Assembly: GCA_947626275.1 (NCBI GenBank)
Contig: CANQRL010000006.1
Location: 11,638 to 75,637 of the forward strand
Reading direction: 5' to 3'
Origin: an uncultured Bacilli bacterium
Lineage (GTDB): Bacteria > Bacillota_I > Bacilli_A > RF39 > UBA660
Length of the DNA: 64,000 bases
Shown: positions 51,523-57,376 of the stretch, in pieces
How positions within the stretch are numbered: the first letter of the stretch is position 1
How the letters are laid out: each line of letters begins with the position of its first letter
Position numbers and translations under genes: made by a program
Notes under the pieces: generated by a model
What the model was told of the DNA's origin: nothing
The model's input: the letters and a program-made list of their open reading frames with translations, nothing else
The model's database searches: none

Positions 51523-51957
51523 ATGTCAAAAACAACGATTGTTCGAAAAATAGATGATTTAGGAAGATTAGTTTTGCCAAAAGATGTACGAAAAGTCTTA
51601 AATATTCATACGGGTGATTTATTAGAGCTGACGACTAAGGAGGATGTTTTATCCATTACGAAATATTCTAGTATTCAAGATATCCGTTTTTTAGCGGAAA
51701 TTCTTTTCAACACAATTTATGAGAAATATCATATTGAAGGAATTCTATTGGAGAAAGATTGTTTAGTAAGTTATCCTAGTATTGTATCCCTAAAAAAAAT
51801 AGAGGATAAAAGAACAGCAGATAATTTTTTAGAAGCTCCTATTTTGAGAGAAGAAAAAGAGGTCGGAAAATTAGTTTTTTTGACAACGGATACGAAATAC
51901 CATGAGTTACTTTCTTTCCTCGCTTTATTTTTTAGGAAATATCTTGAAGAATGTTAG
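51523..51957 (+). CDS. spoVT: AbrB-domain regulator, SpoVT-like with shortened GAF-like C-terminus
   Basis: TTIVRKIDDLGRLVLPKDVR..L.I..GD.LE, then ITKYSSI...AEIL...I; downstream of mfd as in B. subtilis. Confidence 0.65.
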   Translation: MSKTTIVRKIDDLGRLVLPKDVRKVLNIHTGDLLELTTKEDVLSITKYSSIQDIRFLAEILFNTIYEKYHIEGILLEKDCLVSYPSIVSLKKIEDKRTADNFLEAPILREEKEVGKLVFLTTDTKYHELLSFLALFFRKYLEEC

Positions 51958-51972
51958 AAGTTGTGTTATAAT
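51944..51972 (+). promoter_or_regulatory. Sigma-A promoter of the T-box leader
   Basis: TTGAAG-17-TATAAT with extended -10 TG. Confidence 0.7.
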
Positions 51973-51979
51973 GAAGCCA

Positions 51980-52195
51980 TTCAAAGGCGAAGAAGGAAAG
52001 AAAAATAAGGATGATTTTTTAGAGAGCTTGGTTAGGTGAAAGCAAGTAAATCAAAATTATTTCGAATGGGTCTGGAGCTTTTTATCGGAAAGGGTAAAAC
52101 GAGGTGCCGCGTTAAGGCTTTGAGTGTATAAAGTAATTTATAAATTAAGGTGGTACCGCGTCATCACGTCCTTATCTAGGATGTGATTTTTTTTG
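51980..52195 (+). ncRNA. T-box riboswitch, Met specifier
   Basis: AGAGAGC..GGTGAAAGC apical motifs, GA-ATG-G specifier (ATG 52066-52068), AAGGTGGTACCGCG T-box (52147-52160), terminator ATCACGTCCT/AGGATGTGAT plus T run. Confidence 0.9.
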
Positions 52196-52209
52196 TAAGA
52201 AGGTGTTGT

Positions 52210-52698
52210 ATGAGAAAGTTTGAAAAGATTAGTTTTAAACAATGGAAGAAAGACATAAACACATCTCGCGAAGAGTATGATTCTTTAGAATTACCAAAAC
52301 GTCAAACAAAATATAGTGCAGGGTATGATTTTAAAAGCCCCGTTGATTGTGTGATTCATCCTGGCGAAGTTGTGAAAATTCCAACAGGAATAAAAATCAG
52401 GATGAATGAAGACGAAATGATGATGTTGGTAGTAAGAAGTAGTACCGGATTTAAATACAATGTACGAATGACAAATCAAGTAGGAATTTTTGAGAGTGAT
52501 TTTTATAATAATGAGACAAACGAAGGACATGCGATGGTGAGTCTTCAAAATGAAGGAAAAGAAGATTTTGTCATTCATAAAGGAGATCGTATTGTCCAAG
52601 GAATTTTTGTAAAATTCCTAACAGTAGATGAGGAAGAAGAAATTACTACGGTTAGAAAGGGTTCGATTGGTAGTACAAATAAGGAGGAAAAAAGATGA
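52210..52698 (+). CDS. dut: dUTP diphosphatase (trimeric dUTPase family)
   Basis: LPKRQT..SAGYDF, IPTGIK, RSS, GIFESDFY (variant motif III), GDRIVQGIF, RKGSIGST; start MRKFE at 52210. Confidence 0.88.
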   Translation: MRKFEKISFKQWKKDINTSREEYDSLELPKRQTKYSAGYDFKSPVDCVIHPGEVVKIPTGIKIRMNEDEMMMLVVRSSTGFKYNVRMTNQVGIFESDFYNNETNEGHAMVSLQNEGKEDFVIHKGDRIVQGIFVKFLTVDEEEEITTVRKGSIGSTNKEEKR

Positions 52699-54248
52699 AA
52701 GAAAAATATTATATTTCAACAGCTATTGCTTATACATCAGGAAAACCGCATATTGGAAATACTTATGAAATTATTTTAGCGGATGCGATAGCGCGTTTTA
52801 AAAGGGCACAAGGATATGATGTCTATTTTCAAACAGGAACAGATGAACATGGAGAGAAAATTGAATTAAAGGCCAAAGCAGCTGGGGTAACACCACAAGA
52901 ATATGTTGATGAAGTAGCAGGGGTTATTCAAGGTATTTGGGATAGAATGAATACAAGCTATGACCGTTTTGTTAGAACGACAGATAAAAAGCATGAAGAG
53001 GAAGTTCAAAAAATATTTAAGAAGATGTATGATAAAGGAGATATTTATCTAGGTGAGTATAAAGGGTTATACTGTACTCCTTGTGAATCTTTTTGGACAG
53101 AATCACAATTAGTCGATGGAAAATGTCCTGACTGCGGAAGGGAAGTAAGGGAAGCCAAAGAAGAAGCTTATTTCTTTAAATTATCTAAGTATCAAGACCG
53201 TTTAGTAGAGTATATTGAATCTCATCCTGATTTTATTCAACCAGAATCTCGTAAAAACGAAATGTTAAACAATTTCATTAAACCAGGATTACAAGACCTT
53301 TGTGTATCTAGAACATCTTTTAGTTGGGGAATTCCTGTCGATTTTGATCCAAAACATGTTGTCTATGTATGGTTAGATGCCCTAACGAACTATATTACAA
53401 ATATTGGTTTTGATGTCGATCATCCAACCGAGGAATTTAAAAGATATTGGCCAGCAGATTTGCATTTAATTGGAAAAGATATCATTCGTTTCCATACGAT
53501 TTATTGGCCTTGCTTTTTATGGTCACTAGATATCGATTTACCAAAGAAAGTTTTTGGACATCCTTGGTTACTTACGAACAATGATAAAATTGGTAAGAGT
53601 AGAGGAAATGCAATTTATGCAGATGATTTAGCAGATCTTTTTGGTGTTGATGCCGTAAGATATTATGTATTACATGAAATTCCATTTGCCAATGACGGAA
53701 ATCTAACTTATGAATTGATGATTGAAAGATACAATTCTGATTTAGCTAATATTTTGGGTAATTTAGTCAATAGAACCATATCAATGGATAAGAAATATTT
53801 TGATGGTATAGTACCAGAAGTAGGAGAAGTAGAAGCTATTGATGATGATTTGAAAAAGGTTATTAAAGAATCTATTTATAAAACAGAAAATTCAATGGAA
53901 GGACTAAAAGTAGCAGATGCGATTGATGCTGTTTTTGAAATCTTTAGAAGAAGTAATAAATATATTGATGAGACAACTCCTTGGACGTTAGCAAAAGAAG
54001 GAAAAGTAGAGAGATTAAAAACCGTTATCTATAATTTGTTAGAATCCATTCGTGTAGGAGCTATCTTACTTCATTCCTTCTTACCAGAGACCGCTGAAAA
54101 AATCTATCAACAATTAAATACGGATAAGAGAGATTTTGAAAGTATTAAAGAGTTTGGCGCATTAGAAAGTGGAAGACCAGTGAATGACCCAGAACCTTTA
54201 TTTGCTCGTATTGATAAGGAAAAATTTTTAGAAGAGTTACAAAAATAA
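52695..54248 (+). CDS. metG: Methionyl-tRNA synthetase (short form, no C-terminal OB domain)
   Basis: YTSGKPHIGN, GTDEHG, C4 knuckle, YVWLDAL, GKDIIRFH, KIGKSRGN. Confidence 0.97.
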   Translation: MKEKYYISTAIAYTSGKPHIGNTYEIILADAIARFKRAQGYDVYFQTGTDEHGEKIELKAKAAGVTPQEYVDEVAGVIQGIWDRMNTSYDRFVRTTDKKHEEEVQKIFKKMYDKGDIYLGEYKGLYCTPCESFWTESQLVDGKCPDCGREVREAKEEAYFFKLSKYQDRLVEYIESHPDFIQPESRKNEMLNNFIKPGLQDLCVSRTSFSWGIPVDFDPKHVVYVWLDALTNYITNIGFDVDHPTEEFKRYWPADLHLIGKDIIRFHTIYWPCFLWSLDIDLPKKVFGHPWLLTNNDKIGKSRGNAIYADDLADLFGVDAVRYYVLHEIPFANDGNLTYELMIERYNSDLANILGNLVNRTISMDKKYFDGIVPEVGEVEAIDDDLKKVIKESIYKTENSMEGLKVADAIDAVFEIFRRSNKYIDETTPWTLAKEGKVERLKTVIYNLLESIRVGAILLHSFLPETAEKIYQQLNTDKRDFESIKEFGALESGRPVNDPEPLFARIDKEKFLEELQK

Positions 54249-54261
54249 CTCTTCTTTTTTG
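54231..54261 (+). terminator. Terminator of dut-metG
   Basis: AGAAGAGTTA-N5-TAACTCTTCT plus T run. Confidence 0.75.
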
Positions 54262-54351
54262 TCAATAAGTGTAAAATGGAGTTTTTTGTCGATGAAAATT
54301 CCTATTCTCTCTTCAAAAAGTGTGTTATACTCTATTCGTGAGGAGAAAATT

Positions 54352-54519
54352 ATGTCAACAAAAGAACGAATAGTAGTAAAGGAAGTACTTGTTGTTCTGT
54401 CCCTTATGGCTTTTTTAGTATTTTGTAGTTTTTTGGTAAGTCATAGATTGACGGACATCTTGTATTTTGGAGCTATCATGGTCTATATGCTTTATTATAT
54501 CCTTGGTAGAAGAGCTTAA
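54352..54519 (+). CDS. Small (55 aa) two-helix membrane protein
   Basis: RBS AGGAG, TG-TATACT promoter; MSTKERIVVKEVLVVLSLMAFLVFCSFLVSHRLTDILYFGAIMVYMLYYILGRRA. Confidence 0.6.
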   Translation: MSTKERIVVKEVLVVLSLMAFLVFCSFLVSHRLTDILYFGAIMVYMLYYILGRRA

Positions 54520-57026: not shown

Positions 57027-57376
57027 AAAAATTAGGTTTATTATTAGTGGCATTAATATTAGTCGTAGGATGTGAAAAAAAGGAAGAGGAACCATCTAAT
57101 TCTAACTCCAATTCTGGTTCTAATTCTAACCCAACAGTGACAGACTCTTCGTTAGCAGAACTCTATGTACAAAGTTTAATTGACAGTGCGGAACAGTTAT
57201 GGGTATTAGGGGAAGCTAGTAGCTGTATAGATGCCAAAACACTATCTACCCAAGAAGCAACCGGTGGAATGATTTGTATGGAAGATTCTATGTTAGTTGC
57301 TAAAAGTGTAACGTATGACGGATTTATTTGTAACGGACAAAAAAGTGAATTAAGCTGTGTGAAAACGAATGATTAA
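57023..57376 (+). CDS. Small lipoprotein with Ser/Asn linker
   Basis: MKK..lipobox VVGC, SNSNSNSGSNSN; four further Cys in the mature part. Confidence 0.7.
   Translation: MKKLGLLLVALILVVGCEKKEEEPSNSNSNSGSNSNPTVTDSSLAELYVQSLIDSAEQLWVLGEASSCIDAKTLSTQEATGGMICMEDSMLVAKSVTYDGFICNGQKSELSCVKTND

Follow-up and report, generated by a model that had tools for sequence, protein, structure and literature searches.

Why should a gene of the dUTPase family stand between a methionine-specific T-box leader and a methionyl-tRNA synthetase gene? The question is raised by a stretch of 64,000 nucleotides (nt), hereafter the window, from an uncultured Bacilli bacterium of the order RF39 (GenBank assembly GCA_947626275.1, contig CANQRL010000006.1, positions 11,638 to 75,637 of the forward strand), in which a T-box leader is followed first by a dUTPase-like gene, dut, and then by metG (window positions 51981–54248). 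T-boxes are understood as regulators of aminoacyl-tRNA supply, acting on synthetases, amino-acid synthesis and amino-acid transport. An earlier note on this DNA had offered two explanations, either induction of dut by methionine starvation as a link between one-carbon status and thymidylate, or passive capture of the gene. We found that dut stands behind T-boxes of four amino-acid specificities in related bacteria, and that a second, unrelated dUTPase is placed likewise. We consider it moderately probable that dut is under T-box control and that it owes its position to a recruitment of nucleotide-pool enzymes to T-box/synthetase operons across the lineage.

The leader, its elements and the two genes all lie on the forward (+) strand, and by its sequence the leader is a complete, Met-specific transcriptional T-box, whose response to tRNA is predicted from this anatomy. 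Leader, terminator and U-tract together occupy 51981–52194. The part from Stem I to the antiterminator (51981–52176) matched the Rfam model RF00230 over its full length (model positions 1–219), with 104.5 bits against a gathering score of 93 and an E value of 5e-22. It is preceded by a sigma-A type promoter at 51944–51972, made of TTGAAG (51944–51949), a 17-nt spacer and TG-n-TATAAT (51967–51972), which had 10 of 12 consensus matches plus the extended -10 in a consensus scan; both hexamers were conserved across an alignment of 21 leaders. The specifier loop of Stem I carries AUG (52066–52068) followed by the purine G (52069). AUG was invariant in all 20 aligned Met-class leaders and in the further Met-class leaders of a second comparison, the next base being G, or A in loci L031 and L055. 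The codon slot of the covariance-model alignment held UGG, which would specify Trp. We rejected this reading and took AUG as the correct one because AUG plus purine alone is conserved among the relatives, UGG changing to UGA in L031 and L055, and because the T-box bulge UGGU (52151–52154, read from the sequence), whose predicted partner is the free ACCA end of an uncharged tRNA, fits A73 of tRNA-Met and not G73 of tRNA-Trp. In this genome the tRNA-Met genes end in A73-CCA and tRNA-Trp ends in G73-CCA. Both a scan and folding identified an intrinsic terminator at 52163–52194, consisting of a 10-bp stem with a 5-nt loop (52163–52187) and seven U residues (52188–52194), with a hairpin energy of -15.1 kcal/mol and a z-score of -3.0. 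The 5' arm of this hairpin (ATCACGTCCT) shares nucleotides with the antiterminator's 3' strand, and the two structures are mutually exclusive. All elements of a complete T-box that the earlier note had read from the letters (AUG specifier, UGGU bulge and terminator) were therefore present, as judged from the RF00230 match, the relatives and the tRNA discriminators. Among the tRNA genes, ARAGORN also predicted a tRNA-Ile with a UAU anticodon and, about 1.3 kb away, a CAU tRNA of unusual appearance, whose acceptor and D-arm sequences are atypical (C1:242143–242218 and C1:243503–243579); no tRNA-Tyr gene was found in the assembly.

The dut-like open reading frame (ORF) at 52210–52698 encodes 162 amino acids (aa) of the trimeric dUTPase family (Pfam PF00692). 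It starts 15 nt past the U-tract, with a Shine-Dalgarno sequence AAGGTG at 52200–52205, and its TGA stop overlaps the ATG of metG at 52695 by 4 nt (ATGA). The first cistron of the Met T-box is thus dut, and the 15 nt between terminator and start codon are too few to hold a separate promoter; its position directly behind the leader, the ATGA overlap and the lack of an evident promoter in between are all as previously described. The second cistron, metG (52695–54248), encodes a methionyl-tRNA synthetase (MetRS) of 517 aa that scored 755.8 bits with NCBIfam PRK12267 (cut-off 598) and 554.9 bits with TIGR00398 (cut-off 336) and carries the class I signatures HIGN and KIGKS in its translation. The match ends at position 519 of the 648-position profile, and this MetRS lacks the C-terminal domain that binds tRNA. 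No other MetRS was found in the 1.4-Mb assembly, in which metG is the single true PF09334 locus.

To place this arrangement in the lineage, 60 relatives were searched genome by genome, and the order abrB/T-box/dut/metG, in which abrB is an AbrB-like regulator gene, was found in 20 genomes, this one included (genus codes g1, g3, g7 and g11). When GTDB was scanned with one genome per species, 558 proteins were confirmed as relatives of the dut product; the best 80 loci belonged to uncultured gut “Bacilli”, “Tenericutes”, “Mollicutes”, Clostridium sp. CAG:1193 and CAG:914. Gene contexts were counted over 103 non-redundant loci, in which T-boxes were detected by a motif pattern together with covariance-model checks on subsets, and in which related species are non-independent samples. 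Where dut adjoins metG, a T-box lies upstream in 66 of 70 loci, in the order abrB/T-box/dut/metG/tatD. The order about whose conservation the earlier note had asked is thus neither unique nor accidental. In other members of the family or order (G020, G026 and G037) the T-box lies directly before metG, suggesting that dut was inserted into an existing Met T-box operon. Some Met operons contain further ORFs (L055, L070 and L087; L061 and L086): one of 312 aa between dut and metG, others of 154–170 aa between the T-box and dut, and one of 196 aa after dut, none of which had a Pfam or NCBIfam match. Besides, five loci (L068, L081, L082, L118 and L119) read abrB-dut-(about 290 nt)-tatD; there metG and the T-box are gone and dut remains.

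The same gene also occurs before other synthetase genes. A T-box lies upstream in 14 of 15 loci in which dut adjoins tyrS (identified by Pfam and TIGR00234), in all three loci with thrS, and in the single locus with valS (984.7 bits). The specifiers are UAC (Tyr), ACU (Thr) and GUA (Val), and AUG for Met, and each matches the synthetase downstream. The Tyr and Thr leaders were full-length with covariance-model E values of 1e-10 to 1e-18, below the gathering score, and the Val leader scored 124.8 bits. All Tyr, Thr and Val loci are without abrB and tatD and therefore represent different chromosomal sites, the native loci of these synthetases. For example, in genome G031 dut precedes thrS, and the Met T-box of that genome leads directly to a MetRS of another type. 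The spacing between dut and the synthetase gene is mostly -29 to +17 nt, often with the same ATGA overlap; in all T-box-linked loci except one (L080, 49 nt) the gap is 17 nt or less or the genes overlap. The Thr-linked leaders keep Thr-type antiterminator sequences, like the leader of this genome's own thrS, which suggests that dut entered downstream of an intact native leader. For the same reason, movement of dut by recombination within the conserved T-box is not supported.

In a tree of the dut proteins, the Tyr-linked and the Thr-linked copies each fall in two places. The free tree would imply at least five independent relocations, which we do not claim since approximately unbiased (AU) tests do not reject a single origin of either group (p 0.33 for Tyr-linked and 0.25 for Thr-linked copies). 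The sequences point to at least three changes of the dut locus, each of which put the gene at a site flanked by the terminator of a T-box and a synthetase gene. We know of no link between dUTP (deoxyuridine triphosphate) hydrolysis and methionine, and the methionine rationale fails because orthologous dut genes also sit behind Tyr, Thr and Val T-boxes; an unrelated dUTPase behind a Tyr T-box, described below, speaks against it too. On this comparison of loci, the link of dut is to synthetase operons with tRNA-sensing leaders, whichever the amino acid, and is not specific to methionine.

We mapped the ten T-box leaders of this genome and read the operons behind them. Seven of them carry genes before the synthetase gene, of which five are nucleotide-related (CYTH, HAD, deoC and the two dUTPases) and four are ORFs without a confident family. 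Behind the Tyr T-box (G000:C4:37227–40488, locus L122) stand a HAD hydrolase gene, deoC (278 bits), a gene for a dimeric dUTPase (PF08761, 72.9 bits against a cut-off of 22.9) and tyrS. The best matches of the HAD protein were YjjG-type pyrimidine nucleotidases, below cut-off. The Ile T-box is followed by a CYTH protein gene and ileS (G000:C2:25090–28966), the Val T-box by a 159-aa ORF and valS (C9:25442–28718), the Thr T-box by a 321-aa ORF that overlaps thrS by ATGA (C11:13928–16867), and a T-box whose specificity was not read by a 272-aa ORF and glyS (C17:15079–17505). Another leader whose specificity was not read is separated from leuS by about 360 nt containing a doubtful 124-aa ORF. The Met T-box precedes dut and metG, and the three remaining leaders directly precede aspS, pheST and gatCAB. 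The 159-aa and 272-aa ORFs had no match, and a protein-atlas look-up of the latter also gave nothing; the 321-aa ORF gave weak diadenylate-cyclase-like signals only (E value 0.003, atlas score 0.83).

The dimeric dUTPase shares the family PF08761 and the metal-binding motif ExxE...ExxD with the all-alpha dimeric dUTPases 5mil and 5myd of Staphylococcus aureus phages. Residues E50, E53, E57, E77 and D80 of this site were invariant in 11 sequences. A profile matched the two phage structures at 3e-10, and was needed for this, as a single-sequence search of solved structures found nothing. Unlike the phage enzymes, the enzyme described here is encoded on the chromosome, its gene lying between a T-box and tyrS. 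PF08761 copies from other families of the class share only 25–30% identity with it and have no T-box link. The order T-box(Tyr)-(HAD)-deoC-dUTPase_2-tyrS, with or without HAD, occurs in 11 further genomes of the genus, and T-box-dUTPase_2-tyrS in three genomes outside the genus set (G020, G036 and G098). The two dUTPases can also be combined, as in T-box(Tyr)-dUTPase_2-dut-tyrS (L111 and L115), and the HAD gene can join dut, as in T-box(Met)-HAD-dut-metG (L075). From these families, the HAD-deoC-dimeric dUTPase set looks like a set for the breakdown of deoxyuridine nucleotides under a tRNA-Tyr switch. In six other genomes, the genes between T-box and synthetase included an HD/HDIG protein gene before valS in four genomes, a deoxynucleotide monophosphate kinase together with a P-loop kinase, and an HD protein resembling the RelA/SpoT hydrolase.

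Whether the dut product is a working enzyme bears on any account of its position. It scored 64.8 bits with PF00692 (cut-off 22), is the only PF00692 gene in the genome, and fell below the cut-offs of all NCBIfam dUTPase models (124.5 of 223 bits for PRK13956, 85.5 of 102.55 for TIGR00576 and 78.1 of 103 for PRK00601). Its closest solved relative is 3h6x of Streptococcus mutans (E value 1e-27, residues 24–157), followed by E. coli Dut (2e-13). With 3h6x and PRK13956-type dUTPases it shares LPKR, AGYD, RSS, NEGH, GDR.VQG and GST, and it differs from them in an N-terminus that is 10 residues longer (FEKISFxQ[FW]KKD) and in motif III, where GVIDGDY is replaced by GIFESDF (Asp to Glu, Ile to Phe and Tyr to Phe). 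Motifs I (AGYD), II (VRSS), IV (GDRIVQ; consensus GxRIxQ) and V (RKGSIGST, with Ile for Phe of the consensus RxxGFGSTG) are intact. In motif III (GIFESDFY; consensus G-x-I-D-x-D-Y), the alignment with 3h6x and E. coli Dut places Glu95 (codon 52492–52494) at the position of the catalytic Asp, and Phe at that of Tyr. The deviations of motifs III and V to which the earlier note had drawn attention are thus real, and they are typical of the clade and under purifying selection, with no sign of decay. In related loci, Glu occurs in about 49 of 110 and Asp in about 53 of 110. The ratio of nonsynonymous to synonymous substitution rates (dN/dS) within the Glu clade was 0.04–0.14 for dut, compared with 0.03–0.10 for metG, and motif decay through relaxed selection was rejected for the dut of this genome (dN/dS 0.04–0.10). 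Several genomes of the genus with the Glu variant had no dimeric dUTPase detected; this enzyme was found in only 5–6 of 50 related genomes, so that most of the genomes searched showed no second dUTPase family. The Glu form is probably active, as it is common in the clade, evolves under purifying selection and is often the sole dUTPase-family gene found; the catalytic motif of dUTPases would then have a naturally occurring form with Glu for Asp that is apparently functional.

A different situation was observed in sister species of the same genus (L025–L029, L031, L032 and L035), whose dut proteins are without motif V, ending in ...RRSTY or ...RESDY, and without the motif IV arginine (GDGMCQ). 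Their dN/dS was 0.04–0.05 over three closely related pairs (L026, L028 and L029), and 6 of 8 genomes with such copies also carry the dimeric dUTPase. By their sequences these copies may be pseudo-enzymes with a retained role, and this subclade is a better candidate for a changed function than the dut of this genome.

The nucleotide metabolism of the organism gives some context for such enzymes. In the assembly, which is 92.6% complete, we found NrdD (the class III ribonucleotide reductase), ThyX, thymidine kinase (Tdk) and two genes of the uracil-DNA glycosylase (UDG) family; ThyA and class I or II ribonucleotide reductases were not found in it. Class III reductases reduce nucleoside triphosphates, which would yield dUTP directly. 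Since NrdD is the only reductase found, dUTP hydrolysis would, if so, be the obligatory de novo route to the monophosphates dUMP and dTMP in this genome. ThyX is encoded by a single 459-aa frame with two tandem Thy1 domains (G000:C2:9607–10854). One of the UDG-family genes (PF03167, 65 bits) lies at 57369–58019, some 4.7 kb 3' of dut and in the same orientation, past tatD and two ORFs, and the other is on another contig.

Taken together, the anatomy of the locus suggests the following mechanism. A constitutive promoter would start a T-box leader of about 215 nt. Uncharged tRNA-Met, whether elongator or initiator, would base-pair with this leader at two sites, the CAU anticodon at the AUG specifier and the free ACCA end at the UGGU of the antiterminator bulge; this would block the terminator at 52163–52194 and let RNA polymerase read into a bicistronic dut-metG message. 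Translation of the two genes would be coupled through the ATGA overlap, and the dUTPase would be a working member of the operon without a methionine-specific role. At the level of the lineage, dUTP-hydrolysing enzymes of two unrelated folds, together with other nucleotide-pool enzymes, would have been placed as leading cistrons of T-box/synthetase operons and would keep this position when the locus changes, so that their expression would be tied to synthetase expression and tRNA charging.

Passive capture, the second proposal of the earlier note, stays as a rival to recruitment. The T-box would then be that of metG, and a promoterless housekeeping dut may have come to lie at a permissive site that separates leader from synthetase gene in a shrinking genome and been carried along, without selection for tRNA-dependent control. 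The ancestral arrangement in the order, with the T-box directly before metG (G020, G026 and G037), is compatible with this, as are the varied genes before the synthetase in 7 of 10 T-box operons of this genome and the many in six relatives, some of which have no link to nucleotides. Such neutral hitch-hiking is possible, if doubtful, because each of at least three locus changes placed the gene between the terminator of a T-box and a synthetase gene, and T-box junctions make up only about 1%, by our estimate, of the gene junctions in a genome of 1.4 Mb. Genes for dUTPases of two unrelated folds and for an HAD protein resembling nucleotidases recur at this junction together with deoC in different combinations, and the native Thr-type antiterminators leave T-box homology as no obvious vehicle for the moves. 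Capture alone does not explain why dut remains behind T-boxes at each change of locus, or why two unrelated dUTPases and further nucleotide enzymes are found there. It is also improbable that the dut-like protein is not, or not only, a dUTPase and has a role connected with the synthetase or tRNA, for instance a regulatory or moonlighting one like that of some phage dUTPases. Glu95 in place of the catalytic Asp, Phe for the motif III Tyr and the scores below all NCBIfam cut-offs would fit such a change, as would the low dN/dS of the sister copies that lost motif V and the motif IV arginine, their co-occurrence with the dimeric dUTPase, and a second dUTPase in this genome that could cover the enzymatic need. 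In the dut of this genome, however, motifs I, II, IV and V are intact, the protein is a clear homologue of the streptococcal dUTPase 3h6x, the Glu variant is also present in genomes with no other dUTPase detected, and no hint of RNA or synthetase binding was seen in the sequence. We regard as still more improbable that a promoter inside dut drives metG, so that the T-box effectively controls dut only or the two genes are regulated apart. The sole promoter-like site inside dut was a weak TTGTCA-16-TATTGT (52568–52595, 9 of 12 matches), about 100 nt upstream of metG. However, 19 such matches in the region compare with 14.7 expected from shuffled sequences, which is chance level, and the site lies on the conserved codons of motif IV, so that its conservation does not bear on whether it is a promoter. 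Coupled expression is indicated by the ATGA overlap and by how closely the synthetase gene follows dut in relatives. Only 15 nt separate the terminator from dut.

We return to the recruitment of nucleotide-pool enzymes to T-box/synthetase operons as the reading that we prefer, because the position was kept through at least three locus changes and two unrelated dUTPases were each recruited to it. Several observations weigh against this reading. The number of independent moves of dut is uncertain, and only three are safe. Nine loci within the group carry dut without a T-box (three metG-linked, one tyrS-linked and five of the abrB-dut-tatD type), so that T-box control is not obligatory; the same loci agree with hitch-hiking. 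Genes for GNAT and alpha/beta hydrolase proteins, DUF362 and several ORFs without a match also precede synthetases in the six other genomes, and the junction may therefore simply tolerate insertions; streptococcal hypothetical genes in the same junction (PMC2494555) again favor hitch-hiking. HAD, HD and CYTH are broad superfamilies, and membership does not tell the substrate. Co-transcription and induction are read from the gene layout, and any selective advantage is putative. Finally, a 726-aa Rel enzyme is present, the stringent response is not missing, and a replacement of it by T-boxes was rejected; a coupling of dUTP hydrolysis to tRNA charging is without an established physiological reason.

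The T-boxes of this order of small-genome gut Bacilli may, beyond their feedback on synthetases, constitute a regulon that responds to tRNA charging and governs enzymes of the deoxynucleotide pool and of nucleotide signalling. We put forward this broader idea tentatively and with considerable doubt. Candidate members are the dUTPases of two folds, the nucleotidase-like HAD protein, DeoC, CYTH, HD/HDIG proteins, the deoxynucleotide kinase, the RelA/SpoT-hydrolase-like protein and possibly the diadenylate-cyclase-like protein.

Comparison with known systems shows which features are shared and which are new. The metS/metG T-box leaders of Bacillus and other Firmicutes (RF00230) have the same architecture, with AUG, UGGU and a terminator/antiterminator switch. 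They directly precede the synthetase gene, whereas here a 162-aa dUTPase-family gene lies between the two and is coupled to metG. In Staphylococcus aureus, a Met-specific T-box controls the non-synthetase genes metICFE-mdh (PMC3771891), similar to the situation here, except that those genes make methionine and the regulatory logic is direct. A further parallel is in streptococcal T-box operons, in which a “tRNA-ligase related hypothetical” gene comes first before valS, thrS, glyS or alaS (Wels et al. 2008, PMC2494555). These too are small non-synthetase genes between T-box and synthetase, but they are uncharacterised and have no reported moves between specificities, whereas the gene described here encodes an identifiable DNA-precursor enzyme behind four specificities. 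The gene dut is absent from the T-box regulons curated for 93 genomes (PMC3766115 supplements). Our literature search found no paper linking T-boxes to dUTPases, and neither dUTPase nor deoxyuridine is mentioned in the text of TBDB. The T-box-dut-synthetase arrangement across Tyr, Thr, Val and Met, and the dimeric dUTPase with HAD and deoC in the Tyr operon, therefore appear to be new relative to the literature that we found.

The genes around the two-gene unit are those of a conserved neighbourhood. The AbrB/SpoVT-like regulator gene at 51523–51957 (+ strand) has a Pfam MazE_antitoxin/AbrB domain, an NCBIfam AbrB family match and a partial SpoVT match. It lies 5' of the T-box in most related loci and marks the abrB-metS-tatD neighbourhood; the order abrB-metS-yabD, seen in B. 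subtilis, is what we take to be the usual one in Firmicutes. A terminator-like hairpin with a T-run at 54230–54260 (+ strand), at the end of metG, closes the unit, and is followed by tatD and a 290-codon ORF. A small ORF at 54259–54519, with a probable ATG start at 54353 (about 55 aa), encodes a hydrophobic peptide with its own TG-extended -10-like sequence and had no family match.

In summary, a DNA-precursor enzyme is encoded first behind a tRNA switch in about 100 species and across four amino-acid specificities, and a second, unrelated dUTPase is likewise placed. If the arrangement is neutral, it would mean that the junction between T-box leader and synthetase gene collects genes in reduced genomes, and for annotation that the specifier codon is no guide to gene function, contrary to what has been proposed for T-box-controlled genes. 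If it is selected, the charging state of tRNA would act directly on dUTP/dTTP metabolism, and this in organisms whose deoxynucleotides apparently come only from a triphosphate-reducing reductase. Should the tentative regulon prove true, these organisms would possess an RNA-based link from translation status to DNA-precursor metabolism, operating alongside the stringent response.

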